This document shows positions 14,494-63,542 of a DNA stretch of 64,000 nt, piece by piece. The stretch comes from Gloeobacterales cyanobacterium. GTDB taxonomy: Bacteria; Cyanobacteriota; Cyanobacteriia; Gloeobacterales; PMM-0068. Under the pieces are notes generated by a model. It was given only the letters and a program-made list of their open reading frames with translations. It was not told the origin of the DNA and ran no database searches. The first letter of the stretch is position 1. Each line of letters begins with the position of its first letter. The stretch covers positions 1 to 64,000 of the forward strand of contig JBBRSB010000027.1 in the NCBI GenBank assembly GCA_038245785.1. Reading direction: 5' to 3'. The translations under genes and the position numbers were made by a program.

Positions 14494-15336
14494 TCAATCC
14501 CTAAATGGCTGCAACGCCGTCATCAGTTCCTGGCAGCTTTGGGGACGTTGGTGTGGGTCTAAAGCCGTGGCAGAGAGGATTATAGGAATCAGGGCGGAGG
14601 GAATGCCCGTCTCTTCTAAGCCCATCAGACTTCGTGCTCTCGGGTTGTAAAAATGGGTAGGCGGCTGTCGGGTGAGGAGGTAGACCAGCGTAGTACCGAT
14701 GCCATAAATATCGGATTGCAGACAAGGGCGTCCCTGATTCTGTTCTGGAGCGCCATAGCCGGGAGTTGCAATCCGAGTTCCGGGGGCACTTCCCACTTCT
14801 TTCACGGCTCCAAAGTCAATCAGCACAATTTGGCGAGGGCTATGGCGCAGGATAAGATTGGCGGGCTTGATATCACGGTGGATGACGCCCCGTTCGTGCA
14901 AATAACTCAAAATCTCGCAGGCTTCCAGCATCCAGCCCACAGCCTGCCCTACATCAACAGGCTGTATTTGCTCTAAGGTTGGTCCGTGGATCAGCTCCAT
15001 GACGAGGGAATAGTGTTCATCAGTGCAGAAAAAATCATAGAACTTGGGAATGCCAGGATGCTGTAGCGCTTGCAGGGCTTGGGCTTCCCGCATAAATAAC
15101 TCACGGGCTTTAGCCTTACGCGATAGGTCGGCATTGATCTCTTTCAGCACAGCCAACCGATGAACCTGGGGATTGTATACCCGATAGGTCGTACTCATCC
15201 CCCCTTGGACCAGAACATCTATAACTTCGTATTCCCAGCCTTTTTCAGGATTGCGCAGGGTTCCCTGGCTGTGCAACAGACGGCCACAGGTCCTACAGAA
15301 TCGAACCTCAGGAGGATTTAGCTGACAACATTCCAA
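14494..15336 (-). CDS. Ser/Thr protein kinase (soluble, N-terminal Cys motif), last gene of the CIS sheath-tube operon
   Basis: QGGMS, VLKE, HRDIKPAN, DFG, APE; AAGGAGG upstream of TTG start. Confidence 0.92.
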   Translation of the reverse strand: MECCQLNPPEVRFCRTCGRLLHSQGTLRNPEKGWEYEVIDVLVQGGMSTTYRVYNPQVHRLAVLKEINADLSRKAKARELFMREAQALQALQHPGIPKFYDFFCTDEHYSLVMELIHGPTLEQIQPVDVGQAVGWMLEACEILSYLHERGVIHRDIKPANLILRHSPRQIVLIDFGAVKEVGSAPGTRIATPGYGAPEQNQGRPCLQSDIYGIGTTLVYLLTRQPPTHFYNPRARSLMGLEETGIPSALIPIILSATALDPHQRPQSCQELMTALQPFRD

Positions 15337-15380
15337 AGCGGACCCTCCTTACTGGGTTTACCAGGGCGATAAGTCCTAAC

Positions 15381-15572
15381 CTACATAACATTCCAAATAT
15401 CTTCTGTGGATGAACTTTCTCCCTGTTGATTGATTCTACTGATTTGGGATACCCAGCGCTGACGATCGGGATGTTCTAAGTTCAGAATGTCATCCTGAGA
15501 CCAGTGGAAATGAAAAGCGATGAAGGCTACCTCCTCGTACAGTCGAGCGGAGGGGTAGCCTAAGATTCCCCC
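15381..15572 (-). CDS. DUF6760 family CIS protein (probable frameshift extension of tail chaperone)
   Basis: YP..RLYEEVAFIAFHFHWS..DILNLEH.DR.RWV..I..IN; frame is -1 to the upstream chaperone at GGGGGAA. Confidence 0.8.
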   Translation of the reverse strand, partial: GGILGYPSARLYEEVAFIAFHFHWSQDDILNLEHPDRQRWVSQISRINQQGESSSTEDIWNVM

Positions 15573-15940
15573 GATAGGGCAAGCTCCACATTGAAGTGGG
15601 CACTGCACTGAGGACATTGGGTTGGAATATGGGCCTCTCCCTGCTGATTGATTCGGTTATAGAACTCTCGCAAATAGGCAATGTCACGGGCGAATAAGCC
15701 TTCTAAAAGTTGGGGCGTCACCGCAGTTAAACTTCCTAATCGGGTAATCACCCGTGAAAGCATAACCAGGACGCTATAGGCAGCATTATCTTGAACCAAA
15801 CGGTCTTTTTGGACCAGAATTTCATCTTTGGCGGTGGACAAACGCATCACCCCCTGACGATGGACATGCCCTTGTGCATCCACCAATCCCCTCGGCAGGA
15901 TGAAATCAAATTCAGTTTGGAGTGTACTTTTACGGCGCAT
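15560..15940 (-). CDS. Phage-tail assembly chaperone (CIS), copy 2, with C-terminal CPQC
   Basis: LQTEFDFILPRGLVD..G.MRL.TAKDEI..LSRVITRLG..YLREFY.RIN; start at Met 15940. Confidence 0.85.
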   Translation of the reverse strand: MRRKSTLQTEFDFILPRGLVDAQGHVHRQGVMRLSTAKDEILVQKDRLVQDNAAYSVLVMLSRVITRLGSLTAVTPQLLEGLFARDIAYLREFYNRINQQGEAHIPTQCPQCSAHFNVELALSGES

Positions 15941-16001
15941 TGGATGGTTCCAAAATTGAACGAAGGTTTCCCCTATCAAGGGGAACTTGAGATTTAGCTG
16001 G

Positions 16002-16364
16002 TTACCCCTCCTTATTGCTAGGCGTAAGCCTTCCCGGAGGGTGGGGGACAGGGGGGATCTCTTTAGGCGCACCACCATCTAAATCATTAATATGGCGATA
16101 AAACTGCTGTAGGTAATTTAAATCTCCTGCAAAAAAACCTTCTACAACTGAGGGGGTTACCTCGTCTACGGCCCCTAGCTTAGTAATCACACGAGACAAA
16201 ATAATCACTGTCGCATAGGCAGGATTGGATTTAACCCGAGGGTCGCGCAAGGGAGCAATTTCATCCATCGCTCTGGATAGACGCATCACTCCTTTGCGGT
16301 GAAGATTACCTTCATCATCCAGGTAGCCTTTTGGAAGTGTAAATTCAAATTCAGTCTGGAGCAT
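16002..16364 (-). CDS. Phage-tail assembly chaperone (CIS), copy 1
   Basis: MLQTEFEFTLPKGYLD..GVMRL..DEI.PLRDPRV..NPAY; paralog of 15560-15940. Confidence 0.85.
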   Translation of the reverse strand: MLQTEFEFTLPKGYLDDEGNLHRKGVMRLSRAMDEIAPLRDPRVKSNPAYATVIILSRVITKLGAVDEVTPSVVEGFFAGDLNYLQQFYRHINDLDGGAPKEIPPVPHPPGRLTPSNKEG

Positions 16365-16370
16365 AAAAAC

Positions 16371-16883
16371 CTACACTTTGTCTCGGATTAACTCTTCAAC
16401 AGCAATCCCTAACTCTTCAATTTCAAACTCAGTGCTCTTTGCACTGACATCAGCAATTTTGAAAATAGTGGGCCAAGCTCTTTTGAACTGGAGCCTAGCG
16501 GTTTCTTTTCCTGCTTGGTTAAAGATAGTCAGAGAACCATCTTTTCGTTGCTTTCCTTCAGCCCACTCTCCTTTTTGGGTCTTTTCGAACCAATCCCAAA
16601 AAGTCATGGAATCACTTGTTCCTCGACGGAGAGTAATGTTGTCATACTTAGTATTTCCAGGAACTTTAGTGCGGACAACCTCTCCTTTATTGTTGCCTTT
16701 GCCCCATGGGCTGGGAGTTACTTCACAAATTTCAACCACCTGCTGGGTAGCTTTGAATCCTTTGCACTCGAAAAAAATGGCATCTACAGGGTCTTTTGAG
16801 CCATCAAGTTTTAGCTCTAGGTAAAAACGACAAGCAGTTAAGAACTCATAAGGTTTCTTTTCCATTGGAGATAGTTGTGCCAT
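16371..16883 (-). CDS. CIS tail tube protein (T4 gp19-like)
   Basis: RFYLEL..F.EC.G..KVPG..KY.NITLRRG..FWDWF..RKDGSL..AWP. Confidence 0.9.
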   Translation of the reverse strand: MAQLSPMEKKPYEFLTACRFYLELKLDGSKDPVDAIFFECKGFKATQQVVEICEVTPSPWGKGNNKGEVVRTKVPGNTKYDNITLRRGTSDSMTFWDWFEKTQKGEWAEGKQRKDGSLTIFNQAGKETARLQFKRAWPTIFKIADVSAKSTEFEIEELGIAVEELIRDKV

Positions 16884-16901
16884 GGCCTATCCATTCCTCA
16901 T

Positions 16902-17372
16902 CTACTGAACACGTTTGAAGGTCTCATAGGTTAGAACGACTGTTTCGATAGCCCATTCAGTCCCCGTTGCATTGAAATTAGGGCCTGAGTACTTACGAGG
17001 ATAACAATTCTGTAATTCCCAGATAGCTTCAACCGAGCCATCCTGTTTGAAAGCACTGATCTGAACCCGTTGTCGACCAGGATTGTCCTTCCACTTGTTC
17101 CCTTTGTCGTACTGATTCGTTTTGGAATACCATTGCCAAACGTCATCATCATTAGAGGAAACAAACTTAATCGTAACCTCACCGTTTTTCTCTAGCGTGG
17201 GTGTTGATTGCCAAACATGGGTTCCTGTTTTATCACAGCCAATGGGGTCCCCTTTGCCAGCAACGGGAGATTCCGTTGAAATATTGCTAATCTCCCGAAT
17301 CGCTTTTTCAGTAACTTTATCGCTCTGCCAATAAAAGCGACATTGAGTTAAAAATTCATCTGGTTTTGCCAC
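16902..17372 (-). CDS. CIS tail tube protein (gp19-like), divergent paralog
   Basis: Paralog of 17389-17847; EFLT.CRFY..WELQNCYPRKYSGP.F.A..IETVVL.YE. Confidence 0.85.
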   Translation of the reverse strand: MAKPDEFLTQCRFYWQSDKVTEKAIREISNISTESPVAGKGDPIGCDKTGTHVWQSTPTLEKNGEVTIKFVSSNDDDVWQWYSKTNQYDKGNKWKDNPGRQRVQISAFKQDGSVEAIWELQNCYPRKYSGPNFNATGTEWAIETVVLTYETFKRVQ

Positions 17373-17388
17373 AGTTTCATCCCCTTAT

Positions 17389-17847
17389 TTACATGACACG
17401 TTTGATACCTTCATGGACCAATTCCAGGGTTTCATTAGCCATGTCCCCGGTGGAGGCGCTGAAGGTTGGACCGACATACTTGCAGGGGTAGGCATTGACT
17501 ATTTCCCAGCGAGCTTGCATCGTGCCCGCTTGGTCATAGGCCGTTACTGAAGCTGCTTTGCGGCTACTCTTCCAAGAAGAGCCCCCTGCATCGTTTTTGT
17601 TACACTTCTCATACCACTGATAGAGATCCATCTCATTAGTAGCGATTAGTTTAACGGTGACATTATTGAACTTTTCATTGGTGGGCGTGGCTTGGCGGGC
17701 TTTGACCCCACCTTTACCAGAACCATGAGGCTGAGCACCTCCACCGACGGGAGATTCCGAAGCAAGACCGTAAATCTCCCGAATCATCTTGTCAGTGATG
17801 CCATCGGCTTCAAAGTAGAACTTACAACTGGTTAAAAATTCAGCCAT
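17389..17847 (-). CDS. CIS tail tube protein (gp19-like), probable major tube
   Basis: KFYFEADG..LYQWY..RK..SVTAYDQ..RWEI.NAYP.KY.GP..ETLELVHEG; adjacent to sheath. Confidence 0.88.
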   Translation of the reverse strand: MAEFLTSCKFYFEADGITDKMIREIYGLASESPVGGGAQPHGSGKGGVKARQATPTNEKFNNVTVKLIATNEMDLYQWYEKCNKNDAGGSSWKSSRKAASVTAYDQAGTMQARWEIVNAYPCKYVGPTFSASTGDMANETLELVHEGIKRVM

Positions 17848-17894
17848 GGATTGACTCCTGGGATTAACTCCTGTTTACGTACTTGTTCGTTCAC

Positions 17895-19565
17895 TTATTC
17901 GTTCTCCTCACGGCCACTCCACTGGGTGATCCGGAAGATGATGAATTCTGCGGGTCGGACGGGACAAACTCCAATCTCCACATACAAGCGACCCAAAATC
18001 ATCGTTTCAGGCGTGTTCAGCTCTGCATCACATTTGACATAGAACGCTTCTTCCGGCGTGGACCCGAACAGGGCTCCTTCCCGCCAGATCCGCTCTAGGA
18101 AATTGCTAATCGTCCGCTTGACACGCATCCAGAGGTCTTCATCGTTAGGTTCAAAGACTGCCCACTGAGTACCAAGTTCAATCGATTTTTCGATGTAGCT
18201 AATCAGTCGACGAACGCTGATATAACGCCATTCCGTCTTGTCCGGTTCGACGAGCGTCCTCGCTCCCCAAATACGGATGCCTCGGTTCGGGAAAGAACGA
18301 ATGCAGTTAATCCCAATCGGGTTGAGCAGTTCTTGTTCGCGGAAGTTGACTTCATAGCCTAGGCCAAGGACACCCCGTGGCACTTCGTTGGCTGGCGCTT
18401 TGTAGACGCCTCGGGTTTCATCGGTACGGCCCCAAACACCCATCATGTGGCCGCAGGGAGGGACAAGAATTGGTCTACCGTTATTGCGCGGATTGGCCAC
18501 TTTAATCCACGGGTAGTAGAGAGCCGCAAACATAGAACGGCGGTTAAAGGCACTCAACCACTGGACTACATCCTGAGGTTTGGTGCGGTCTGGAGGTGGA
18601 TCGAGCAAGACCATCCGGTTTGGCGGGTTGGGCACATCGCCATTGGCAGCCCCTTCGCACAGACTGACCATCAGTTCCATGATGCCGTGGACCTGTTCCA
18701 AATCTAGAAGCTCTGCTTCATAGGCCCGCATCAGGTCTGGGCAAGCCAGCATCGTGATTTCATCAATCTCAAAAATGCCGCGTACACCCGTGCGGTCATC
18801 CCGCGCTCCTTCAACATTCCGCGAAAAGCGCTCTGGGGAGGAGGCAACTGGAGGCGGACTCAGCTCATAGACCCCATTGCCAGGTCTGCGGGCCAAAGGC
18901 CGTCCGGTTTGAGAGAGATCCTGGACCGATATATAGGCAGAAGTTTGCAGGGCCGTAGCCACATAGGTCGCCACCTGCGCGGCAGCTTCTCGGTTCATTG
19001 TCAGGTGGTCAAATCTTTCTAGGACTTGGTCTTCCCGACGAATGATGACAGAAAAGTATTCACCCGTGTTGGCGGGCGCTTCTGCTTCTGGGGTTTCTGT
19101 CCCTTCAGGCAGCGCACGCGGTCCGCTATCCGCAATCGCTACAGCAACGGGGCCAAAAGCCGCCTGTTCAGGCCGCAGACCAAAGCTAAGCGAGGGACGG
19201 TTGCCCCGGCTTTGAATCTGTAACCCCGTATAGGTTGATTCCCGAGGCTGGACTGTACCCGGCAGCTGGGTACCAACACTGGTAATCCAACAGCGGCCTC
19301 CACCATTGAGGAAGTAGCCATATACCGCAAAGGGCAAGTAGGCATTGAAATCGGTAAAGCCATCAGAACCGGCACGGGCGAAATAGTTTTGATACTGAGT
19401 CCAGGTGGTGACCAGCATCGGTTTGAAGAGTTCGGCACCACCGCGTACATCTTCCGTAAAACCGACAAAGCCAGCAATAGCCGTACTGACTCCTTCAATC
19501 GGGCGACTGCCCCGGTCTATCTCTTCAACGTAGACGCCAGGGGCAAAGTAATCCAGTCTTGGCAT
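17895..19565 (-). CDS. CIS contractile tail sheath protein
   Basis: Y.APGVYVEE..PIEGVST..AGFVG; AALYYPWI; GVYKAPANE; WGART; FEPND; PVRPAEF. Confidence 0.97.
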   Translation of the reverse strand: MPRLDYFAPGVYVEEIDRGSRPIEGVSTAIAGFVGFTEDVRGGAELFKPMLVTTWTQYQNYFARAGSDGFTDFNAYLPFAVYGYFLNGGGRCWITSVGTQLPGTVQPRESTYTGLQIQSRGNRPSLSFGLRPEQAAFGPVAVAIADSGPRALPEGTETPEAEAPANTGEYFSVIIRREDQVLERFDHLTMNREAAAQVATYVATALQTSAYISVQDLSQTGRPLARRPGNGVYELSPPPVASSPERFSRNVEGARDDRTGVRGIFEIDEITMLACPDLMRAYEAELLDLEQVHGIMELMVSLCEGAANGDVPNPPNRMVLLDPPPDRTKPQDVVQWLSAFNRRSMFAALYYPWIKVANPRNNGRPILVPPCGHMMGVWGRTDETRGVYKAPANEVPRGVLGLGYEVNFREQELLNPIGINCIRSFPNRGIRIWGARTLVEPDKTEWRYISVRRLISYIEKSIELGTQWAVFEPNDEDLWMRVKRTISNFLERIWREGALFGSTPEEAFYVKCDAELNTPETMILGRLYVEIGVCPVRPAEFIIFRITQWSGREENE

Positions 19566-19593
19566 GAGGGTCTCCCTTTAAATTAGGTCTAAG

Positions 19594-20427
19594 TTAGGTC
19601 GGGGTGAGTAGCACTTCTTTGAAGGCATAGCTTTGACCATCGACCAGAACATTGCACCGTTGCGGCATATAGCCAGAGCGGCGCAGCTCCAGGATGTGGT
19701 GGCCCAAAGCAAGGTTTTCGAAATAAAACAGTCCGTCTTCGTTGCTCGTGGCCATCTTTTCGGTGCCGACAAGCACGACTTCTGTCGCCTCTAAAGGCAA
19801 GGTGGAAACAGCACTCTTCACTAAGCCTGCCACCGCTACTTTCTTGGTGCGTATGGTGGCTCCTCCAGGCTCACTCTGCAGTTGGAGTATGCGTTCCCAA
19901 ACCAGAGGAATAGGAGGCGTACTTTGGAGACCGAAAGGAGTGGTCACTGTCACCTGCACCGCCGGTCGTAACGGAATACCGAGGGCATTCCAAAGCGCTC
20001 CCATATCGATCGGTTGCACCGCAGAAACCGTCATCGATAGGTTGCCTTGACCGCGTAAGGCCGGGGCTAAAAGGTCTTCGCGCAGCAAGCGATGACGCAG
20101 CAAGAGGGTCAAGGCTTCCGATAACAGATGATGTTCTCCCAGCGATGTCCGGTCCCAGGCCGTTATCAAGAATGAAACATCAAACCAAGCAGGAGCCCAG
20201 CCGATGCTGGCTGATTGGGGACCCTCTTGCGTAGCCCTGCGGTCTACCTGCCGACCCGAGTGTTGCATTTGAGCACTTTCTCGGAGGTCATAGAAATACA
20301 GATTCAAAGAAGGTCCCGTCGTCTCCTGGCGGGCACTGGGAAACTCGAAGCTAATTTGCTCTGTACTGGTAAGAGAAGTTCCACCAGCCAGGATTTCTGC
20401 CAGAGTCTGAACAACAGCGGGAATCAT
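19594..20427 (-). CDS. DUF4255/Pvc16-like cap (tail terminator) with C-terminal carboxypeptidase-regulatory-like domain
   Basis: LNLYFYDLRE..FLITAW..EHHLLS..LW.ALG..LRP; C-terminal G.V..A.V..T..DG.F.F.NL. Confidence 0.85.
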   Translation of the reverse strand: MIPAVVQTLAEILAGGTSLTSTEQISFEFPSARQETTGPSLNLYFYDLRESAQMQHSGRQVDRRATQEGPQSASIGWAPAWFDVSFLITAWDRTSLGEHHLLSEALTLLLRHRLLREDLLAPALRGQGNLSMTVSAVQPIDMGALWNALGIPLRPAVQVTVTTPFGLQSTPPIPLVWERILQLQSEPGGATIRTKKVAVAGLVKSAVSTLPLEATEVVLVGTEKMATSNEDGLFYFENLALGHHILELRRSGYMPQRCNVLVDGQSYAFKEVLLTPT

Positions 20428-20913: not shown

Positions 20914-22104
20914 ATGAATATCGATGCGGTGCTTGGGGAGAAAGCGGTTTCTAAGAAAACTTTACCCTTAGAATTGTCAAGGATTAAGCCTTCTTTCAGC
21001 CCTGCCGTAATTCCTATTTATTCTCCTCAACAAGAACTGCGTGATTACTGTGAGCTTCAGGCAGAGCAGTTAATCATGCAACAGTCTATAGTTTCTGTCT
21101 GGATTGTCTATCGTACTGGAGAGCAGGCAGAACGTGAATGGATTATGCATTATGCTCCTCAGCAATTGACTTTTTCCGCAGAAGTTTTAGCCAATCTCAA
21201 ATCGGAAACCTGGCTAAATGATATTCAGTCGAACCTAGAATTCAATGAGCTAAAATCACGAGAATTGTCCTTAGATGAGAAAATAAGTAGCTATGTGTGT
21301 TTTATCGACCGTAGAGAGCAAGAATCTGCTTACGTGCTTATATTTGCAGATGAGCCGCTTCCTCAAGCTCAGCAACAGTATGTGAAGCGGTGTGTGCAAA
21401 TGATTAGAAAATACCTTGATATTCACCAAAAGCACATGCGACAGCAAACAGAGATTCAACTACTAGAACAGATCATTCAAAAAGCAGCACACCAGCTCCG
21501 CAACCCCTTAGCTTTAGTAGGTTTATACGCTGAAAATTTACGCTTATCCTTATCCACGAATAACTTGCAGGAACAAGCCAATATAATCTGTGAGACACTC
21601 CGAGATCTGGATAGCAATCTCAATGACTTAATCTACTGTGGGCAGCGATCAAAATTGCGCTTTGCCCTTCAGGATTTAAGGTCCATTTTTTTAGAAAGTA
21701 TCAGTGGATTGAGGCTTTTAATTGAGCAAAAGAAAGTACATATAACCTATCCAGAAAAGTCAGTCAATCTGACTGTTGACTATCTGCAAATAAAGCAAGT
21801 TTTTGACAATTTGCTCTGTAATGCAATCCAGTTTAGTCCTGACGATGGACAGATTCGCTTTCATTGGAGTGTCTTCCAGCATGAGGTCTTAATTGAAATC
21901 TATGACCAAGGGCCAGGACTTTCTGAAGAGGACCTCCAACAAATATTTACGCCTTTCTACTCCCGTCGTCCCAGTGGAACGGGTTTAGGACTATCGATTG
22001 CTCGCAAGATTGTTCTGGACCACCAGGGCAGTATCTGGGCACAAAACATTCCAGGAGGAGGGGCACAATTTTCAATCACACTGCCTCGGGCCATTTCTTT
22101 TTGA
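20914..22104 (+). CDS. Sensor histidine kinase (no obvious TM)
   Basis: AHQLRNPL H-box, QVFDNLL.NA, DQGPG, GTGLGL. Confidence 0.93.
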   Translation: MNIDAVLGEKAVSKKTLPLELSRIKPSFSPAVIPIYSPQQELRDYCELQAEQLIMQQSIVSVWIVYRTGEQAEREWIMHYAPQQLTFSAEVLANLKSETWLNDIQSNLEFNELKSRELSLDEKISSYVCFIDRREQESAYVLIFADEPLPQAQQQYVKRCVQMIRKYLDIHQKHMRQQTEIQLLEQIIQKAAHQLRNPLALVGLYAENLRLSLSTNNLQEQANIICETLRDLDSNLNDLIYCGQRSKLRFALQDLRSIFLESISGLRLLIEQKKVHITYPEKSVNLTVDYLQIKQVFDNLLCNAIQFSPDDGQIRFHWSVFQHEVLIEIYDQGPGLSEEDLQQIFTPFYSRRPSGTGLGLSIARKIVLDHQGSIWAQNIPGGGAQFSITLPRAISF

Positions 22105-22123
22105 GTTTAAAAGGACAAAAATC

Positions 22124-22819
22124 ATGGTTACCGCTTTAGAAAATTGCACAATCCAACAAAAAGTCTCCCTCCTCTTGGTCGATGACGAAGCCCGCTTTCG
22201 GCAGGGACTACGCACCCTCCTTAATTTTTATAGTGACGATACCCTAGCTTTTGAAGTGGTTGGGGAAGCAGCTTCCGTGGAACAAGCCGTAAGCTTAGCC
22301 AAAGAGCAACGACCGACCCTCATTCTCTTAGACCTGGAATTAGCTCAAGGAGATGGCGTCACTGCGCTGAATCGCTTGCGAGAAATTTCTTACTCCGGCA
22401 AAGTCCTGGTTCTCTCTGCCCATCAAGAGGAGGATTGGATCTTCCGGGCAATGCAGGCAGGTGCTTCTGGCTACGTCTTCAAAAATCATCTGGCCAGTCA
22501 ACTCTGTCAAGCGATCACCACGGTGATGAATCACGAAGTCTATTTGCCCGCCGAAGTCGCCACCCGCTTTTTCCGCTTATTTCACTTTTACTCAGGCCGT
22601 TCCTTACAGGCTGCTCAATCTGTTCATCTGACGGAAAGAGAACAAGAAGTGCTGCATTGGTTAGTCCAAGGAGCTTCCAATGAAGAGATTGCTAAGCATC
22701 TCTACATCACAACCGCCACGGTAAAAGCTCATTTGACTGCTATTTTCACCAAGTTAAATGTCACCAGTCGTACCCAGGCGATTGTCAGTGCCTTAAAACT
22801 TGGGTTGGTTCAGGCATGA
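22124..22819 (+). CDS. NarL/LuxR-family response regulator
   Basis: LLVDD..LILLD..GYVFK receiver; LTEREQEVL..GASNEEIA..TVKAHL HTH; start at Met 22124. Confidence 0.95.
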   Translation: MVTALENCTIQQKVSLLLVDDEARFRQGLRTLLNFYSDDTLAFEVVGEAASVEQAVSLAKEQRPTLILLDLELAQGDGVTALNRLREISYSGKVLVLSAHQEEDWIFRAMQAGASGYVFKNHLASQLCQAITTVMNHEVYLPAEVATRFFRLFHFYSGRSLQAAQSVHLTEREQEVLHWLVQGASNEEIAKHLYITTATVKAHLTAIFTKLNVTSRTQAIVSALKLGLVQA

Positions 22820-22885
22820 TGGGCGTCATGCTGCTGTTGAGTTGTCCAAGTACGCAATCACATTAACTAAGAAAGGAGAAAAATC

Positions 22886-23413
22886 ATGTCTATCCATCAA
22901 AAAAGAGATCCAGAAACGGGCCAAGTCATCATTGAAGGCGACGCAGCGGCAGATAATATTCATGTGAAACCTCGCATGACTGAGGAAGGTGAAGATGGAG
23001 TCATTGTTGAGAGTCTAGATAGGGATGGTAATGCAATCCGAAGCTATGAATTGAATGCTGAAGAAGTGAGACAAGGAGGAGGATTATCCATTAAAAGTGG
23101 AGAGGGCAACGATTATATTGACGTTGATGAAAGTGTTCATTCTGATTTAATTCTAGATGGCGGTGGAGGCAATGATACGGTCTTAGGCGGTGGGGGGAAT
23201 GATATCGTGTCTGGCGGTACAGGCGATGATCTCGTATATGGCGGTGGAGGACGTGATCATGTGTTTGGTAATGCAGGAGACGATGAATTATATGGTGGTG
23301 AGGGCGCTGATGTTGTTTACCCTGACGAAGAAGACTCAATTGTATCTCCAGGGTTTGGTCCAGTTGGAGAACCTGGAGATAAAAGCGTCTATGGGAACAT
23401 TACTGTTCAATAG
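22886..23413 (+). CDS. Acidic RTX-type (GGxGxD) Ca2+-binding protein
   Basis: Multiple GGGGND/GGTGDD/GNAGDD nonapeptide repeats; AAGGAG RBS. Confidence 0.85.
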   Translation: MSIHQKRDPETGQVIIEGDAAADNIHVKPRMTEEGEDGVIVESLDRDGNAIRSYELNAEEVRQGGGLSIKSGEGNDYIDVDESVHSDLILDGGGGNDTVLGGGGNDIVSGGTGDDLVYGGGGRDHVFGNAGDDELYGGEGADVVYPDEEDSIVSPGFGPVGEPGDKSVYGNITVQ

Positions 23414-23527
23414 TTTAAATCTGAAAATTTGCTTTTAGTTCAGACGAATGTCTAACTTTGCGCCAACAAGTAAATCGACAGAAATAGAACTATAATCGAA
23501 TTGCTTTGAGAAGAAGGAAGCAGGCAA

Positions 23528-23920
23528 ATGCTAGACCAGCAACGAGACCCGGAAACGGGGGAGATCGTTCTTGAAGGGGGAGAGGGCAGTGACCATATCC
23601 AAGTCCTGCCCAACCCTGACGGGGGCGTGATCGTCAAAGCTTACGACAGTAATCATCAGGAAATTTTTAGCCGTAGCTATAGTGCAGATGAAGCGCAACA
23701 TCTTCGCATCGAAGGTGGTCAAGGGGATGACCATATTGCTGTTAGCCAAAACATTCTATATAGGATGCATATTGACGGTGGAGAAGGAGATGATTTTCTC
23801 TGGGGCGGCAGTGGGAATGACCGGATTACAGGCGGAGCTGGAGACGACACCATCTCTGGTGGGAAAGGTGATGACCAGATCAGTGGTGGTGTTGGAGATG
23901 ACTGGATAATAATAGACTAG
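23528..23920 (+). CDS. RTX-type Ca2+-binding protein, paralog of 22886
   Basis: QRDPETGE N-terminus similar to 22886 (KRDPETGQ); GGEGDD/GGSGND/GGAGDD/GGKGDD repeats. Confidence 0.85.
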   Translation: MLDQQRDPETGEIVLEGGEGSDHIQVLPNPDGGVIVKAYDSNHQEIFSRSYSADEAQHLRIEGGQGDDHIAVSQNILYRMHIDGGEGDDFLWGGSGNDRITGGAGDDTISGGKGDDQISGGVGDDWIIID

Positions 23921-24000
23921 CGTATAGATATGATGAGTATAGCCATCCAAAAATTGGAATGTCCTGCTCAGAAAAAAGGATACAGACAGCCTCAGCGCAA

Positions 24001-24179: not shown

Positions 24180-24309
24180 TGCAATGCCCAGAATGTCCGT
24201 CCACGCACATCCGTTTTAGTTAAGAAAATCCGCTTTGGCTCCGGTATCAGCGTCGCTATATTTACCCCAATCACCAACAAGCTACGTGCGTAGGCTAGTG
24301 CTGGTGCCC

Positions 24310-29078: not shown

Positions 29079-29083
29079 CGCCT

Positions 29084-59445: not shown

Positions 59446-61401
59446 ATGCAGGCAAAACAAAGCCCCGTGGCCCTGATCCTCAATCCCACCGGAATGCAGT
59501 CGGTGATGCCTGGGTCTACCCTTGAACTCTACGTGACGGTGAGCAATCAAGGCCCACAGAGTGCCGTGATTGACTTGTTTATTGATGAAGCTTCTCAGAC
59601 TTTGCGTCAATGGTGTGAAACGCCCCGTGAGCGATTGGCTCTCGGACCGCAGCAGAGCAGTGAGGTGGTTTTCCGCTTTCAGATTCCTGTCCAGGCTTTT
59701 CCGGGAATTTATGACTATGTCCTGGTCGTGGATGCACCCCAGCACTACCCAGAAGATACGCCGATTCAGCGCCCGCGTCAGATCCAGGTCTTGCCCCTAG
59801 AACAGGCTGCCGTCAAAGTCAATGACCCCACCTTTAGCCTGAAGCCCGTTACCAATCCGACGCAACCAGCTGTACTGAAACTGGGCCAACCCTTGCCGAT
59901 GCAAGTCCTCGTGCACAACCGCTCTGACCGGGTAGACCGTTTCCGGGTGAGCTGTCCAGATTTAGAGGAAGACTGGTTTAGCGTGCGCTACGCGGCAGGT
60001 TTAGAAGGGCCAGGACTGCTTGCGGGCAGTGACGGTTTAGGGCTTAACCCTGGTGCCCAAGGCCCGATTTCTCTGCTCTTTCAGCCTCCTCCTACTACCC
60101 TGGCGGGTAGCTATTCGCCGACCATCCGCGTACACTCCGCCAACAATCCAGACCTTGTGCTGTTGGACCTTGTCTATATCCAGATTCCAGCCTTTTTTCG
60201 CCTAAATGTAGAACTGGATACCCTCCTCGGCAAAGTCACCCACAGCGCTGGACAGTATGAAATTAAATTGACCAATGAAGGCAATACGATTCGGGAACTG
60301 TCGGTTCGCGCAAAAAGCCGTGATGAAGAAGATCTCTGCACCTATACCTGTGCGCCGGAAGAGGTAAGGGTTCTACCAGGAAAAACCACCAGTGTCAGTC
60401 TCCAGGTAAAACCGACTAAATGGTGGCGTCAACCACTTTATGGAAACCCGTTAGACCTCAACTTTCAGATTGAAGTGGAAGATAGTAAGCAACTTCCCCT
60501 TCCCAAAGAACTACCCCAAGGACTTCTCTTTTGGCAGCCGCGCCCTTGGTGGCAATTGTTGCTATTGGCTTTCTCGGTCTTCGTAGCTATCCTCGGCTTG
60601 GTTTTACTGATCTGGCAAATCTATTTCAAACCGCCACCTCCCCCCAAACTGCTTAGTTTTCAACCGGATAGTCCTGTCTATCGGGAGGCTGCTGGTGACC
60701 GTATTCGGCTCAACTGGCAAATCCGCAATGATGACCAAATTCAAAAAGTTACGATAGCTGGTAAAGCAGGACCAGCCAGCCAAGAAGTTGCCTACGACTT
60801 CAGCAAGGGTATTCCCAAAGATCTGGCAGCCCAATGTCAGAGTCAACAAAAAGTTTTGACCTGCAGCCATGTGCCAACCGATGCCAAGCAAGCTGGTAAA
60901 TACATTTTTGAGATCCAGGTCTTTCCCCGCTCTAAAGGAGATGGGGATGGAGAGCCGCTGACAAAAACGACCGACCTGAGTGAAATTATTCCTCGGCCCG
61001 TTAAACCGGAAGTGGCTCCCAAGATTATCTTTTTCAAACTGAATGGAATCAATGCTCCCGCCAAAGTATCGCTACCGATCAAGACGCCAACGGCATCGGG
61101 CAAAGGCTTGAATCTGACCTGGAAAATCGAAGGCAAAGACACTATCGTCGAGATTCCACCCTATGGGAGCTTTGGGACTACGGGCAAGCTATCTTTGCCT
61201 GCTTACCAGCAGGTCACGGGCGATACGATTACGCTCAAAGCGACGAATAAGTCCGGTCAAGTCACCCGTGGGTTTTCGATCGAAACCTACGACCCGACGC
61301 CACCGCCTCCCGTATCTTTGCCCCCTGTTATTCCGATTCCACCGCTGACGCCGCCTGTTTCTCCAGCTACAAAGCCTGTTTCACCACCACCTTCGCCCTA
61401 G
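59446..61401 (+). CDS. Bitopic membrane protein with tandem Ig-like domains (CisA-like adaptor candidate)
   Basis: VHNRSDRVDRF..W..L.L.PG..G..L.F.PP...AG.Y; NEGN; TM WWQLLLLAFSVFVAILGLVLLIW; Pro-rich tail. Confidence 0.75.
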   Translation: MQAKQSPVALILNPTGMQSVMPGSTLELYVTVSNQGPQSAVIDLFIDEASQTLRQWCETPRERLALGPQQSSEVVFRFQIPVQAFPGIYDYVLVVDAPQHYPEDTPIQRPRQIQVLPLEQAAVKVNDPTFSLKPVTNPTQPAVLKLGQPLPMQVLVHNRSDRVDRFRVSCPDLEEDWFSVRYAAGLEGPGLLAGSDGLGLNPGAQGPISLLFQPPPTTLAGSYSPTIRVHSANNPDLVLLDLVYIQIPAFFRLNVELDTLLGKVTHSAGQYEIKLTNEGNTIRELSVRAKSRDEEDLCTYTCAPEEVRVLPGKTTSVSLQVKPTKWWRQPLYGNPLDLNFQIEVEDSKQLPLPKELPQGLLFWQPRPWWQLLLLAFSVFVAILGLVLLIWQIYFKPPPPPKLLSFQPDSPVYREAAGDRIRLNWQIRNDDQIQKVTIAGKAGPASQEVAYDFSKGIPKDLAAQCQSQQKVLTCSHVPTDAKQAGKYIFEIQVFPRSKGDGDGEPLTKTTDLSEIIPRPVKPEVAPKIIFFKLNGINAPAKVSLPIKTPTASGKGLNLTWKIEGKDTIVEIPPYGSFGTTGKLSLPAYQQVTGDTITLKATNKSGQVTRGFSIETYDPTPPPPVSLPPVIPIPPLTPPVSPATKPVSPPPSP

Positions 61402-61413
61402 GGAGTTTCAACG

Positions 61414-62124
61414 ATGTCCATTACCTGTCCAGAATGCGGTAGTGCCAATCCCCCGGAGTCCCAGTATTGCGGGGAATGTGGCATTGAATTGTCCAAGGTA
61501 GCGGTAACGCCAGAACCGATCGCCGAAAAAGCAGCGCCCAATCCACGCCCCCCGAAAGCCGCTAAAGGTTCTGCATCTCCTGAAGAAAAACTGAAAGCAG
61601 AAGAGAAACTCAAAGCTGAAGAAAAACCCAAATCAGAGCCGGTAGCACCCCCAGAAGCAATTCCAGAGAGTCCTCCACCCCGTCCGTCCATTCTTGCGTC
61701 ATCACCGCCTGCTTCACCCCCCACTCCCGTACCACCTCCCCCTTCACGCCCCACACCCATGCCAATAGCAGGCACGCGCTTACAGCTCACCCAGGCATTC
61801 CTGGTGCATACGGGCACCGGCGAACGCTTTGAATTGCCGATTGGTCGTTCTCTGGTTTATATCGGTAAACCGAATGAGCAACTGCCGCCTGATATTGATG
61901 TATCGCATCTGCTTGATACCGATGTTGTTTCCCGCATACATGCCACCATTTGTGTGGAAGGAGAGCAATACGCGCTGGAAGATGCTGGCAGTAGCAATGG
62001 CACCTATCTGAATGGAGAACTCATCCGTGCGGGTGCTCGATTCCGTCGTCCCCTAAACGCTGGCGACACTATTTCCCTGGGCAAAGGGGATAAGGTCAGT
62101 TTCCGTTTCGAACTGGAAGAGTAG
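61414..62124 (+). CDS. Zn-ribbon + Pro-rich linker + FHA protein
   Basis: CPECG..CGECG; IGKPN..VSRIHA..LEDAGSSNGTYLNG. Confidence 0.92.
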   Translation: MSITCPECGSANPPESQYCGECGIELSKVAVTPEPIAEKAAPNPRPPKAAKGSASPEEKLKAEEKLKAEEKPKSEPVAPPEAIPESPPPRPSILASSPPASPPTPVPPPPSRPTPMPIAGTRLQLTQAFLVHTGTGERFELPIGRSLVYIGKPNEQLPPDIDVSHLLDTDVVSRIHATICVEGEQYALEDAGSSNGTYLNGELIRAGARFRRPLNAGDTISLGKGDKVSFRFELEE

Positions 62125-62126
62125 CT

Positions 62127-63542
62127 ATGTATTACCTGGCTGTGGGTGATTGCTCTTCTCTACCCAATCGCTATCAGATGACTGGGGAAGCCAAGCAGCC
62201 CAAGATTATTGAAGATGCGGAGCCAGAACTCGCTCCAGACCCTAACCCGCAAGTGATGCCTGCTCTTTGTCGCCCCTATCAGCGTTTAAATGCTTTTCGC
62301 TGGGCAATACCGGGTGTACACACTTATTTCGGTCCTAAAGAAGCTCCCTGCGTTCTTTTAGAAGAGGTTCCGATAACAGCCGATGGTTGCCTTTGGCCTA
62401 GTTTAGAAGAAGCGTGGGTCGAGGCAACGCTCCTCCATCAACTGGGATGGCTCCTACAGATTGCCCGCCTTTGGGACCCCTGCCTTCAAGAAGGCGTGGC
62501 GCTATCTCTATTGCAACCAGAAAATATTCGGGTTCAAGGTTGGCAGGCCCGTCTCTCTTTTTTGGAACACGATACTTCTGTTCCCTCTCTACAGGAGCTA
62601 GGAAGCTCTTGGCAGCAGCAGTTGACCCCGATGGTGCTCTCCCTGCAAATGCTGACTCAATCTTTAGCAGAAGGAAAAATGACTCGGGTGGGAGACCTGA
62701 TAGGGGAATTGGAATCTCTGGCTTTGCAGTATGGCAGTAGCGCGAAGGTGGAAGGGATTGCGGGGGCGACCGATCCCGGCAGGCGCGAGAATAACGAAGA
62801 CACTTTTGCCTATGATCCTGAAGGGCACTATGGCATTGTTTGCGATGGCATGGGAGGCCATGAAGGAGGAGAAGTAGCAAGTAACTTAGCCGTTCAGAGC
62901 CTGGCACAAAATGCTGTTTCCCTGGCGCAGCAAACGTTTTCCGCACTCCAGCTCCGCCAAGGCTTGGCCGATGCGCTCTATCAGGCCAACCAACAAATTT
63001 TTGAACTCAACGAACAGCAGGGACGAGACCGCTATCGGAAGATGGGAACAACTGCTGTTGCCTATTGTTTGACAGGACCCCTCCTGCATCTTGCTCATGT
63101 CGGAGACAGTCGCATCTACCTCATCGACCAACAGCATTGTCAGCAGGTAACGGTGGATGATGATATCGCCAATTTAGAAATCAGCCTTGCCCGGACTACC
63201 CGCAGTGCTATTCGCTCCATAGCCTCTGGCGGTGCGCTCACGCAAGCGCTTGGTGTGATTGATAATCACTCGCTACAGCCAACGGTGCAGACGTTTGTTC
63301 TACCCGAAGATTGCCTGGTTCTACTGTGTAGTGATGGTTTATGCGATGGTTCTCTCGTCGAACAGCATTGGCAAGATGCCTTCCTGCCCCTTTTGCATCA
63401 AGACCTGAGCGATAAAACGCAGGGTTTAATCGAATTAGCCCTCAAAGAATTAGGGCATGACAATATCACTTTTGTCCTTCTGCAATATTCCACAGGACAA
63501 GCTCAGGTTGGCAAACGGAGTACCACTGACCTACAGGACTGA
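62127..63542 (+). CDS. PP2C-family Ser/Thr phosphatase with extended N-terminal domain
   Basis: TDPGRRENNED, VCDGMGGHEGGEVAS, MGTT, HVGDSR, LCSDG, GHDNIT. Confidence 0.93.
   Translation: MYYLAVGDCSSLPNRYQMTGEAKQPKIIEDAEPELAPDPNPQVMPALCRPYQRLNAFRWAIPGVHTYFGPKEAPCVLLEEVPITADGCLWPSLEEAWVEATLLHQLGWLLQIARLWDPCLQEGVALSLLQPENIRVQGWQARLSFLEHDTSVPSLQELGSSWQQQLTPMVLSLQMLTQSLAEGKMTRVGDLIGELESLALQYGSSAKVEGIAGATDPGRRENNEDTFAYDPEGHYGIVCDGMGGHEGGEVASNLAVQSLAQNAVSLAQQTFSALQLRQGLADALYQANQQIFELNEQQGRDRYRKMGTTAVAYCLTGPLLHLAHVGDSRIYLIDQQHCQQVTVDDDIANLEISLARTTRSAIRSIASGGALTQALGVIDNHSLQPTVQTFVLPEDCLVLLCSDGLCDGSLVEQHWQDAFLPLLHQDLSDKTQGLIELALKELGHDNITFVLLQYSTGQAQVGKRSTTDLQD

Follow-up and report, generated by a model that had tools for sequence, protein, structure and literature searches.

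A Streptomyces-type contractile injection system in Gloeobacterales and the signaling and membrane genes conserved with it among cyanobacteria

What could trigger a contractile injection system (CIS) that acts inside the cell producing it? For the intracellular systems of subtype IId in Streptomyces, only CisA is known. The locus described here supplies further candidates. It occupies positions 14494 to 63542 of a 64,000-nucleotide stretch of DNA (the window), the first 64,000 positions of contig JBBRSB010000027.1 of a Gloeobacterales cyanobacterium (assembly GCA_038245785.1), and encodes a complete CIS together with a sensor pseudokinase carrying a predicted periplasmic ligand-binding domain, kinases, putative phosphothreonine readers with FHA domains, and a phosphatase. 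These trigger candidates are conserved with the machine from Gloeobacterales to Nostoc. Sequence comparisons place the CIS in a cyanobacterial sub-lineage of the Streptomyces-type (IId) systems, and its gene content suggests that phosphorylation switches its firing.

Gene content, type, and distribution of the system

Open reading frames (ORFs) of the window were listed, and sets of 43, 17, and 16 of them were scanned against Pfam and NCBIfam. Every part of the near-complete CIS gene set that a preliminary description had read from the DNA letters was recovered in its place, and the set proved complete, with a cap, a sheath, four gp19 tubes, two chaperone-like genes, DUF6760, Cis7, VgrG, PAAR, gp25, J, and gpI (Table 1). 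The CIS genes are single-copy in the 5.0-Mb assembly (98% complete), and no second sheath was found in the genome. Three modules are formed. Module A (14494-20427, minus strand) contains the cap, the sheath, three gp19 tubes, two paralogous chaperone-like genes, DUF6760, and a small zinc-ribbon Hanks kinase. Module B (26958-37803, plus strand) contains pbp706, a zinc-ribbon FHA protein, an acidic 277-amino-acid (aa) ORF, a 60-aa ORF, a Cis5-like tube, a 997-aa acidic protein, Cis7, VgrG, and PAAR, and module C (51732-63542, plus strand) contains gp25, J, gpI, a DUF4159 protein, a basic repeat protein, two Ig-like single-pass proteins, a zinc-ribbon FHA protein, and PP2C. The interleaved genes were also as first described: a histidine kinase (HK) and a LuxR-type response regulator (RR), two active-looking Hanks kinases, four FHA proteins, PP2C, two single-pass Ig-like proteins, and several acidic ORFs.

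The initial assignment of the system to the Streptomyces type rather than to the thylakoid-anchored CIS (tCIS) of Anabaena was upheld by comparison with all PDB sequences, 18 of which matched the sheath. The window sheath aligned along its full length with that of the Streptomyces coelicolor CIS (8BKY/9GTP, E = 5.1e-124, query residues 5-551 versus 3-527 of 534; variant 8BL4/9GTS, 2.6e-121), whereas All3325, the Anabaena tCIS sheath, aligned through its C-terminal domain only (residues 363-547, 3.7e-56), with a bit score below those of five other PDB sheaths. Pvc2-4, Afp2-4, and the pyocin sheath (2.6e-11) likewise aligned through the C-terminal domain only, one phage sheath matched at 2.3e-04, and the tCIS tube proteins All3323 and All3324 reached only 1e-08 to 1e-10. 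J matched chain 9gtp_1K (4.7e-123) of the S. coelicolor CIS baseplate, described as the first subtype IId structure (PMC12237407). The comparison also drew on annotated plasmid clusters of three actinobacteria (S. cadmiisoli, S. clavuligerus, and Kitasatospora), all of which run from the cap through sheath, tube, chaperone-like gene, DUF6760, large protein, tubes, VgrG, gp25, and J to gpI. Identities to the S. cadmiisoli proteins were 42% (sheath), 51 to 56% (chaperones), 52% (DUF6760), 42% (gp25), 37% (J), and 30% (VgrG), and Deinococcus plasmid sheaths were 41 to 43% identical to that of the window. Because of the PDB matches of sheath and J, the shared cluster order, and the identities to S. 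cadmiisoli, the system is classed by sequence as Streptomyces-type and as neither tCIS nor prophage.

The gene set also carries traits given for IId loci, namely, a single Afp11/J gene and a contiguous gp27-gp5 VgrG ORF (Chen 2019, PMC6899500): one J gene is present, and Phage_GPD and Phage_base_V lie in one 615-aa ORF. PAAR is present, no tape-measure or fiber family was matched (Pfam, NCBIfam), and a chaperone-like gene is followed by DUF6760 in addition to the DUF4255 cap; these genes also figure in the annotations of the S. cadmiisoli, S. clavuligerus, and Kitasatospora clusters. The Afp15-type AAA+ ATPase listed for lineages I and II (PMC6899500) was not among the genes of the window, in which Pfam detected no AAA+ ATPase. 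Chen 2019 assigns subtype Ib loci to Cyanobacteria, and the window CIS groups with IId. The same paper mentions a IId locus of Calothrix NIES-4101. The preliminary description knew of no characterized example and allowed for related clusters in other cyanobacteria; cyanobacterial IId loci are already in print (PMC6899500). A prophage tail remnant or R-type tailocin would account for the membership of all core proteins in phage-tail families and for the gpE/E'-like frameshift chaperone described below, which is also a phage trait. Such an origin, already disfavored, is extremely improbable: no capsid, portal, terminase, integrase, or lysis family was matched among the 60 window ORFs scanned, the sheath is far from those of pyocins and phages, and the cluster is kept across the whole phylum with sheath identities of 73 to 82%.

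Placement of the host in Gloeobacterales agreed with two labels. The 90%-identity cluster of the window MreB includes a member labeled Gloeobacterales cyanobacterium, and the nearest locus (sheath 96% identical) is a Gloeobacterales cyanobacterium metagenome-assembled genome (MAG). CurT/CAAD (PF14159) had 0 matches in the genome at 98% completeness, and the control, Synechococcus elongatus, was matched; Gloeobacter is not known to encode CurT.

In a word-indexed protein search with the sheath, 7,990 of the 8,000 scored candidates passed E ≤ 1e-20. The best 120 of these were 76 to 96% identical and included Gloeobacter violaceus (Glr4100, 81% identical), G. kilaueensis, Nostoc, Calothrix, Scytonema, Chroococcidiopsis, Chamaesiphon, and Leptolyngbyaceae. 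Relatives were encoded in 223 of 277 pattern matches among species-representative genomes, and 80 loci were kept (sheath 73 to 96% identical); sheaths were 73 to 82% identical across Nostocales, Chroococcidiopsis, Chamaesiphon, and Gloeobacter. Of 301 genomes sampled evenly over the phylum, 21 had a sheath at E ≤ 1e-100, and these represented 17 of 132 genera. Within the order of the window, 10 of 13 other genomes had a sheath match, one of them of a different, C-terminal-only type. The same gene set, accessory genes included, occurs in Nostocales and other thylakoid-bearing orders, which removes the link to the absence of thylakoids that had been drawn at first.

A quick maximum-likelihood tree of 34 sheath sequences drew on 30 of the 80 loci, chosen for taxon spread with the other 50 left out, and took in two Gloeobacterales regions, the window sheath, and three actinobacterial rows. 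The 31 cyanobacterial sheaths fell on one side of a long branch separating them from the three actinobacterial ones (SH-aLRT 100), the Gloeobacterales rows forming a basal grade and 22 rows a crown clade (support 100). An old presence in the phylum would agree with this topology, whose root depends on three long outgroup branches. One contig titled Aphanocapsa lilacina MAG (locus L042) has a sheath operon, including a kin280 ortholog, that groups with the Gloeobacter family in tree and synteny and may reflect a binning error or gene transfer.

Signaling and membrane genes that accompany the machine

Each of the 80 loci consisted of the sheath with 10 kb on either side, many being cut by contig ends, and was searched by tblastn with all window proteins. 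Proteins like fha177 were matched in 57 loci, the HK in 55, the RR in 53, pbp706 in 50, kinases in 32 to 33, wd40 in 21, ig657 in 20, and p60 in 17, while the RTX proteins were matched in 2, fha321 and DUF2808 in 1 each, and the acidic ORFs of the array at 47830-51182, OprB, and GXWXG in 0. At the level of sequence and gene order, a set of non-structural genes is conserved with the CIS across cyanobacterial orders; it comprises the HK-RR pair, pbp706 with its zinc-ribbon FHA partner, active-looking Hanks kinase(s), other FHA proteins, the two Ig-like membrane proteins, and, in Gloeobacterales, PP2C. Across the 301 genomes, pbp706 (E ≤ 1e-40) was found in 19 of the 21 sheath-bearing and 0 of the 280 other genomes, and the sheath matches of the two sheath-bearing genomes without it were N-terminally truncated. 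The wd40 N-domain profile (E ≤ 1e-20) matched 20 of 21 and 1 of 280, respectively, the sole outside match (G192) being partial, in a 190-contig assembly. Near-exclusive co-occurrence with the sheath is hard to explain by neighborhood alone; with synteny, it substantiates the earlier proposal that the signaling and membrane genes belong to the system.

The protein pbp706 consists of a four-Cys ribbon, a domain of approximately 280 aa, a transmembrane (TM) segment (residues 356-374), and a PBP_like_2 domain. In an alignment of 17 sequences, ribbon residues C11, C19, C35, and C38 were invariant, as was D240 at the DFG position; K86 (beta3 Lys) was nearly invariant, and HRD was replaced by an invariant H215-G216-N217. 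The model of the N-domain (pLDDT 80, pTM 0.80) matched GAK, PknB, Stk1, and PknI at a Foldseek probability of 1.00. Because the predicted fold is that of a kinase and H-G-N stands in place of HRD in all 17 sequences, pbp706 is, by sequence and model, a conserved pseudokinase with a predicted extracytoplasmic ligand-binding domain. CisA of S. coelicolor has a cytoplasmic N terminus, one TM segment, and a periplasmic substrate-binding-like C-terminal domain (PMC12237407), and it belongs to the same topology class; the likeness is one of layout, the N terminus being a folded pseudokinase in pbp706 and disordered in CisA.

The kinases kin280 (with VIHRDIKPANL and IDFG) and STK815 keep HRD and DFG, and a kin280 ortholog occupies the same position in the Gloeobacterales loci L001, L006, L043, L099, and L100. 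All FHA-domain matches of the genome (4/4) lie inside the window. The fha177 ortholog adjoins the pbp706 ortholog in the loci mapped, and fha236 and PP2C, the last genes of the baseplate operon, are kept in this order in genome G013, with fha236 also following ig657 in G008. An fha321 ortholog was found in the same-genus genome only; the Calothrix cluster has N-terminal-FHA proteins of 554 and 325 aa. The TagH-type FHA model TIGR03354 gave sub-threshold matches to three of the FHA proteins. The HK and RR genes form a pair divergent from the cap-sheath operon. Four proteins, kin280, pbp706, fha177, and fha236, each begin with a four-Cys zinc ribbon (15280-15336, 26958-27080, 29084-29180, and 61414-61500, respectively), and the fha236 ribbon also matches proteins after gpI in the Streptomyces and Kitasatospora clusters; a Cys-rich region has been noted in Sco4242/CisA (Vladimirov 2023).

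The kinases, FHA proteins, PP2C, and two-component system could instead be ordinary neighbors that control, for example, envelope or cell-cycle functions. Many Hanks kinases lie elsewhere in the genome, STK815 and fha282 sit inside a lineage-specific insertion, and the wiring varies by lineage. Against this explanation, already disfavored and judged very unlikely, stand the confinement of pbp706 to sheath-bearing genomes, the confinement of FHA domains to the window, the FHA and PP2C genes in the baseplate operon of both G013 and the window genome (G000), and the synteny from Gloeobacterales to Nostocales.

The two single-pass Ig-like membrane (Ig-TM) proteins, wd40 and ig657, are tandem paralogs whose N-terminal regions match at E = 9e-07. 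In the wd40 model (pLDDT 79), a TM helix (355-370) comes after three all-beta Ig-like domains, and the top structural matches are hydin-type ASH-domain arrays and integrin legs, in agreement with a sub-threshold Pfam match to HYDIN_VesB_CFA65-like_Ig. The preliminary description took these proteins for bitopic adaptors. Their architecture (a PapD/Ig-like N-terminal region, one TM segment, a variable C terminus, and a place in a IId cluster) is, compared by layout, that of Sco4256-58, which have highly similar N termini, one TM segment, and a variable C-terminal domain and are called effectors, the lumen being mostly empty in the triple mutant (Casu 2023, PMC10066040). The Sco4256-type N-domain is reported to resemble pilus chaperones and to have homologs in IId loci of filamentous cyanobacteria (Vladimirov 2023). 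Against 1.84 billion representative sequences, the wd40 N-domain profile gave 538 matches at E ≤ 0.001; the best 150 of these were all strong.

Two baseplate proteins carry features that could relate to these membrane proteins. Residues 162-253 of gpI match the 190-aa chain 9gtp_E, and the 155-aa N-terminal extension (54364-54840), absent from Streptomyces Cis12 and encoded 2 to 5 kb upstream of the membrane protein genes, resembles one Ig repeat of wd40/ig657 (hhalign probability 64%, E = 6e-05; BLASTP 4e-07). The N terminus of cis13like matched CIS13_fam (8.5e-11, residues 20-118) far below the cut-off, and orthologs (61 to 95% identical) follow gpI in 8/8 regions mapped. Complex prediction for cis13like with wd40 residues 1-350 gave a median score of 0.44 (runs 0.49, 0.01, and 0.44), the best of three controls scoring 0.00; the runs agreed in at least 0% of contacts, and partner pLDDT was ≥79. 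When the method was calibrated, 116 of 157 solved complexes passed the mark, as did 2 of 215 mismatched pairs; scores of ≤0.60 comprised only 18 of those 157 complexes along with both mismatches. With this weak prediction and the Ig-repeat resemblance as its basis, baseplate docking on the Ig-TM proteins is a thinly supported hypothesis, and docking at the plasma membrane and signal gating are inferred.

The Ig-TM proteins also bear on two rival accounts of what the machine does. In the first, they would hold the baseplate of a type VI secretion system (T6SS)-like, membrane-anchored device directed outward, and a phospho-switch would trigger contact-dependent injection into neighbors. The trio of FHA protein, Hanks kinase, and PP2C is the known post-translational switch of some T6SSs, TIGR03354 recognizes three of the FHA proteins below threshold, the cluster encodes five single-pass membrane proteins, and VgrG and PAAR are present. 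The closest characterized relative, however, acts inside its own cell, no TssJLM-like or ClpV-like match was obtained (Pfam and NCBIfam, window ORFs scanned), and no effector-immunity pairs were recognized; an outward device is regarded as unlikely. In the second account, particles of a classical extracellular CIS would be released by lysis and strike grazers or competitors, with the signaling genes merely timing production. Most characterized relatives outside IId are extracellular (PMC6899500), and cis13like stands at the tail-fiber position with a weakly CIS13-like N terminus. This account is still less likely: the C terminus of cis13like is DUF4159 and no protein is fiber-like, no holin or endolysin family was matched in the window, the S. 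coelicolor IId system is without fibers and is not released (PMC12237407, PMC10066040), and dedicated bitopic membrane proteins co-occur strictly with the sheath.

Cluster layout, cargo candidates, and the chaperone-DUF6760 junction

Calothrix NIES-2100 and a Rivularia chromosome carry all of the system in one compact cluster. One side runs cis13like, gpI, J, gp25, a variable gene, VgrG, Cis7, the large protein, tube5, p60, FHA, pseudokinase-PBP, RR, and HK; the divergent side runs cap, sheath, tubes, chapA, chapB, DUF6760, FHA, a Ser/Thr kinase (STK), and, further on, Ig-TM, Ig-TM-WD40, a second Pvc16_N, a WHD-AAA ATPase, and FHA. In the Gloeobacterales genomes G008, G009, G011, and G013, the modules are dispersed, with 0.4 to 2.8 Mb between sheath and J. 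The operon gp25-J-gpI-cis13like-p149-wd40-ig657-fha236-PP2C is kept in G013, and G008 (locus L101) has an uninterrupted run from the large protein through PAAR and gp25 to ig657 and fha236, with PAAR and gp25 adjacent. Because of the compact Calothrix and Rivularia clusters and the module order in G013 and G008, the window layout is read by sequence comparison as the ancestral compact cluster split into three modules by lineage-specific insertions (Table 1).

The insertion between PAAR and gp25 measures 13.9 kb, and its genes were without homologs near the CIS in the other mapped loci. The acidic ORFs within it, which had been proposed as an orphan cargo array, show synteny in the same genus only (G007). 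The 345-aa ORF (ef345) has homologs in six of the 14 genomes of the order; those in G009, G011, and G013, three genomes of the Gloeobacter family, are separated from both sheath and J by more than 300 kb. Homologs of the 151-aa ORF (acid151) occur in 4 of 14, unlinked to the CIS, and in Gloeobacter the OprB and DUF2808 genes are likewise unlinked. The acidic ORFs at 47830-51182 were accordingly rejected as a conserved CIS cargo array; a local function is still possible, as motifs are common among them. They are interrelated: the 345-aa and 144-aa proteins end ...GDYPMPPED..., the 151-aa and 161-aa proteins carry D-T-V-S-D-type repeats, and an N-terminal hydrophobic stretch of the 151-aa protein is rich in Gly and Ala (glycine-zipper-like). 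Elsewhere in this insertion, the FHA domain of fha282 is 57% identical to that of fha236, and two tandem secreted paralogs (40885-44947, 43 to 48% identical), in each of which C-terminal DUF2808 domain(s) follow a long N-terminal region, sit between an FHA protein with an HTH-like N-domain and the bitopic kinase.

A better cargo candidate than the array ORFs is acid997, a candidate lumen protein or cargo. It is extremely acidic, Pro-rich, and familyless, and only its C terminus is conserved in Calothrix (1144 aa), Rivularia, Nostoc, and G008 (971 aa). Its last approximately 35 residues (...LARKIYSFLQQKLAIERERKG...) are common to p60 and the same-position Calothrix and G008 proteins and are recognizable in the 1009-aa S. 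cadmiisoli and 1243-aa Kitasatospora proteins that follow DUF6760, the latter annotated as DUF4157 containing. The motif L-A-x-x-[VIL]-[YHF]...L...E-x-E-R-x-G was seen at 31190-31276 and 34690-34799 of the window and in L082:9859-13293(-), L092:22683-25712, and L094:22635-26366, and it may be a hub-anchoring or loading signal. The p60 gene lies upstream of tube5 in Calothrix, Rivularia, Nostoc C117, and G008 as well. Tape-measure-related, DUF4157-linked effectors are loaded in Streptomyces CIS (Nagakubo 2024, 2026).

In the Calothrix cluster, as in S. clavuligerus, the second Pvc16_N is followed by the WHD-AAA ATPase. Full-length homologs of this ATPase are present in G003 to G005, and G008 has six full-length copies (50 to 58% identical to the query; C1, 1.2-2.5 Mb), none beside the CIS modules. 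Since all six paralogs lie apart from the CIS modules, the family is not CIS specific. The copies in G008 led to rejection of the notion that Cis15 is absent throughout Gloeobacterales. A double-AAA protein of the window genome (C28:50383-52338) was likewise rejected as a displaced Cis15, being CDC48-like, without CIS neighbors, and unlike the cluster-linked ATPase.

The two chaperone-like proteins, chapA and chapB, are 49% identical. S. cadmiisoli has one gene in the corresponding position, to whose product chapB is 51% identical. The chaperone label is putative and follows from position, from the 50 to 56% identity to the actinobacterial same-place gene, and from a weak Phage_TAC_7 match (E = 0.093). 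The conserved part of DUF6760 (GGILGYP...) starts, in the -1 frame, exactly where chapB ends. In a census of 76 junctions (75 loci and the window), GGGGGA was present at 75, the exception being GGAAAAG; the chaperone frame reached a stop 0 to 5 codons past the junction in 76/76; and in 39/76 no ATG, GTG, or TTG lay between the last in-frame stop and the conserved Gly-Gly of DUF6760. The junction recurs in the three actinobacterial clusters as GGGGGAATC and then an overlapping TGA, and two of the three are annotated with a CTG start directly after the G run. DUF6760 is thus probably made as a -1 frameshift extension of chapB, judging from these junctions; the GGGGGA motif alone is no proof, because the overlap of two conserved frames also constrains the nucleotides. 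In phages lambda (gpG/GT) and P2 (gpE/E+E'), a -1 frameshift shortly ahead of the first ORF's stop codon yields two products. The layout of a frameshift pair between the tube genes and the tape-measure position is the same here, but the candidate site is a G run (GGG-GGA) rather than a canonical X-XXY-YYZ heptamer, and the extension is of the DUF6760 family. If the frameshift is real, DUF6760 is an extension domain of a tail-assembly chaperone. A literature search returned no paper that mentions DUF6760 and none that connects CIS, tail assembly chaperones, and frameshifting.

The right end of the cluster is at 63542, beyond which lies a convergent glycosyltransferase gene before the contig ends at 66356. 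Left of 14494, the genes are housekeeping, encoding an FrhB-family oxidoreductase, rluB, rodZ, mreBCD, a rhodopsin, NDH-2, and smpB. The bacteriorhodopsin-family gene is intact (9755-10651, Bac_rhodopsin 2.6e-42; 90% cluster of seven members) and lies between a MazF/PemK fragment region and NDH-2/smpB. The ORF at 8512-8820 aligns to PemK/MazF model positions 2-47 of 109 only and is possibly a toxin remnant, and a Uma2-family nuclease gene lies at 7622-8314. The C terminus of the cap is CarboxypepD_reg-like (PF13620, 29.6 bits), under the cut-off of 32.3.

Table 1. Features of the cluster and its insertions, with family matches given as E values
Feature	Coordinates	Strand	Family matches and remarks
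kin280, zinc-ribbon and Hanks Ser/Thr kinase	14494-15336	-	Pkinase 1.7e-35; last gene of sheath operon
DUF6760 frame	15381-15617	-	PF20546 2.2e-14; -1 relative to chapB
chapB, tail-assembly-chaperone-like	15560-16078	-	Conserved part from about Met47 (about 15940); ends ...GES-stop just past GGGGGA run
chapA, chapB paralog	16002-16364	-	Present in 78/80 related loci
tube3	16371-16883	-	PF06841 2.1e-28; TIGR02241
tube2	16902-17372	-	PF06841 3.6e-25; TIGR02241
tube1	17389-17847	-	PF06841 2.9e-30; TIGR02241
Sheath (Cis2-like)	17895-19565	-	PF17482, PF04984; Phage_sheath_1C 3.9e-18
Cap/terminator, Pvc16_N (DUF4255)	19594-20427	-	PF14065 9.4e-23
Cytoplasmic HK	20914-22104	+	HATPase_c, HisKA; no TM segment
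LuxR/GerE RR	21998-22819	+	Response_reg, GerE; conserved part from about 22124
Insertion	22820-26957		Two RTX proteins, GXWXG/DUF4334, small TM protein, fha321
fha321	25873-26838	-	FHA 4.2e-08; N-terminal FHA, Pro-rich repeat linker, C-terminal TM anchor (302-320)
pbp706	26958-29078	+	PBP_like_2 7.5e-11; zinc ribbon, Hanks-fold pseudokinase, TM, periplasmic PstS-like PBP domain
fha177, zinc ribbon and FHA	29084-29617	+	FHA 8e-14; 6 nt downstream of pbp706
Insertion	29618-31093		Acidic 277-aa ORF
p60, small protein	31094-31276	+	C-terminal motif common with acid997
tube5, tube adaptor, Cis5-like gp19	31267-31773	+	PF06841 7.3e-38; CIS5_fam 5.5e-26, below cut-off; Afp5 and Pvc5 matches
acid997, 997 aa, pI 4.05	31806-34799	+	No Pfam/NCBIfam family; Pro/Glu-rich; tape-measure position
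Cis7 tube initiator (CIS_tube)	34833-35408	+	PF19266 7.1e-19
VgrG spike	35488-37335	+	Phage_base_V, Phage_GPD; VgrG_rel NF033848 8.8e-107
PAAR	37360-37803	+	3.8e-13
Insertion between PAAR and gp25	37800-51700	.	OprB/SLH porin, fha282, two secreted DUF2808 proteins, bitopic STK815, five acidic ORFs (47830-51182)
STK815, active-looking bitopic Hanks kinase	44829-47276		HRD and DFG kept
gp25, baseplate wedge	51732-52154	+	
J/Cis11	52157-54361	+	TIGR02243 1.6e-234
gpI/Cis12	54364-55446	+	Cyanobacteria-specific N-terminal Ig-like extension
cis13like, tail-fiber position	55463-56674	+	C-terminal DUF4159 1.8e-18
p149, basic, Gln/Pro-rich repeats	56787-57236	+	No family; orthologs in G001 and G013
wd40	57303-59444	+	WD40 2.6e-26; sub-threshold Ig-family matches; three Ig-like domains, TM 352-370, WD40 propeller
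ig657	59428-61401	+	Ig-like domains, TM 377-395, Ig-like C-terminal part
fha236	from 61414	+	FHA 5.4e-14; zinc ribbon, Pro-rich linker, FHA
PP2C phosphatase	62127-63542	+	PP2C_2 5.3e-14; Stp1_PP2C 3.5e-47; 216-aa N-terminal region

A possible phospho-switch and its place among known systems

The reading preferred here is that of a IId CIS with a conserved accessory set and phospho-switched docking and firing, which is considered moderately probable. In this mechanism, the HK-RR pair would set transcription of the divergent cap-sheath operon. Particles would assemble in the cytoplasm with the aid of a gpG/GT-like pair, chapB and the chapB-DUF6760 product of a -1 frameshift, and acid997 would be anchored in the hub through its conserved C terminus as a lumen protein or cargo. 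The pseudokinase-PBP protein would sense a periplasmic cue and activate a partner kinase, and the resulting phosphothreonine marks would be read by the FHA proteins and erased by PP2C, much as in PpkA-Fha1-PppA of the H1-T6SS. Once licensed by the switch, the fiber-less baseplate would dock at the plasma membrane, where its Cis12 Ig extension and Cis13-like protein would meet the Ig-TM proteins, and the machine would then fire. By analogy with the S. coelicolor CIS (CISSc), the most likely outcome would be regulated death or lysis of the producer under stress. A more sweeping version is tentative and, taken whole, doubtful: an ancient, phylum-wide machine would be fired by a Ser/Thr phospho-switch in which a sheath-exclusive, periplasm-sensing pseudokinase acts through kinase, FHA, and PP2C proteins to dock a fiber-less baseplate on Ig-TM proteins at the plasma membrane, with a frameshifted chapB-DUF6760 product and a disordered acidic protein at the tape position, features applying also to Streptomyces CIS, and with no Cis15 ATPase in Gloeobacterales. 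The published description of the Streptomyces CIS cluster reports no tape-measure gene.

Several observations weigh against the phospho-switched mechanism. Particles, phosphorylation, docking, and firing are all deduced from genes, and the genomes of the phyletic profiles are mutually related rather than independent. Kinases are frequent in the genome (at least 10 loci), and PP2C and kin280 are CIS linked only in the Gloeobacterales loci examined; therefore, the exact wiring varies between lineages. For wd40 and ig657, no signal peptide was predicted, the flanking charges are ambiguous, and so is the predicted topology. Their BLASTP matches to same-layout proteins of S. clavuligerus (E = 5e-08) and Kitasatospora (1e-05) are weak, in a database of three loci, and by analogy with Sco4256-58 they could be effectors rather than docking sites. 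The cis13like-wd40 prediction is weak, with one of three runs close to zero. With a Nostocales query, no full-length Cis15-like WHD-AAA ATPase was found in the window genome (98% complete) or in G001, G002, G007, G009, G011, and G013, where only generic AAA matches were obtained, and assembly or recycling may therefore differ or be impaired. Contigs of three RNA libraries from one microbial-mat study cover, at 96% identity, the cap gene of a relative (19601-20372, 28 differences in 772) along with sheath fragments; they are a weak hint of expression, as contig depth cannot show transcription and DNA carry-over may contribute, and the uncovered parts of 14494-20427 are uninformative.

The phospho-wiring of cyanobacterial IId CIS appears to be undescribed, although the supplementary tables of Vladimirov 2023 and Chen 2019 may list the loci and genes. 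The words "kinase" and "FHA" occur neither in Chen 2019 (PMC6899500) nor in Gaisin 2026 (PMC12998442), and "kinase" is absent from Casu 2023 (PMC10066040). Literature searches returned nothing relevant that joins CIS with FHA or with FHA, kinase, and cyanobacteria, and a search for CIS and Gloeobacter gave only a toxin database. As far as these searches reach, the conserved, near-exclusive association with a sensor pseudokinase, kinases, FHA proteins, PP2C, and HK is new, as are the Cis12 Ig extension, the Cis13-like DUF4159 protein, the C-terminal motif of the large protein, and the frameshift junction. The predicted chapB-DUF6760 frameshift and the large-protein motif would revise the parts list of all IId systems, including those of Streptomyces. 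Carriers of the system include cultured, genetically tractable cyanobacteria, and regulated death in mats and filaments is therefore genetically approachable.

The signaling genes resemble the threonine-phosphorylation pathway of the Pseudomonas aeruginosa H1-T6SS, which comprises PpkA, PppA, Fha1, and TagQRST. Each of the two contractile machines is accompanied by genes for FHA proteins, PP2C, and a bitopic Hanks-type kinase or pseudokinase bearing a periplasmic sensor domain. The window machine differs in being a IId CIS. Its sensor combines a pseudokinase with a PstS-like domain, it has an HK-RR pair in addition, and there are four FHA proteins, two with zinc ribbons and one tail-anchored; the likeness seen is that of common domains.

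The Anabaena PCC 7120 tCIS (7B5H/7B5I; Weiss 2022) shares a cyanobacterial host, and for it, too, a cell-internal role in stress-induced cell death has been proposed (PMC10066040), but it belongs to a separate lineage, and the window genome is without a second sheath and without a CurT/CAAD match. The CIS of Roseiflexus and other Chloroflexota-Deinococcota (Gaisin 2026, PMC12998442) is, like the window system, a IId system outside Actinobacteria; its particles are intracellular and unanchored, and its authors report no close cisA homolog.

CISSc (8BKY, 9GTP, 9GTS; Casu 2023, Vladimirov 2023, Casu 2025) forms cytoplasmic particles that cause stress-induced death (PMC10066040, PMC12237407). The window system differs from it in its sheath (approximately 42% identity across a long separating branch), its two chaperone copies, its three tandem tubes, its 360-aa Cis12 with an Ig-like extension (versus 190 aa), its Cis13-like DUF4159 protein, and its diderm host; the window genome is also without a cluster-linked AAA ATPase. 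Relative to the three actinobacterial clusters, the HK, pseudokinase, active kinases, FHA proteins, and PP2C are found in the window only, zinc ribbons and an RR alone being matched there, and the large protein follows tube5 without DUF4157 in the window but follows DUF6760 in the actinobacterial clusters. The plasmid clusters share with the window the order cap-sheath-tube-chaperone-DUF6760, with chaperone and DUF6760 50 to 56% identical, and the Streptomyces clusters likewise have an RR gene beside the cap gene. The window system is homologous to CISSc over the full length of sheath and J, and both have one J gene and an undivided VgrG while lacking fibers and a recognizable tape measure. 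In layout, they further agree in tandem membrane proteins with an Ig-like N terminus, one TM segment, and a variable C terminus, and, in CisA and pbp706, in a bitopic protein with a periplasmic substrate-binding-like domain.

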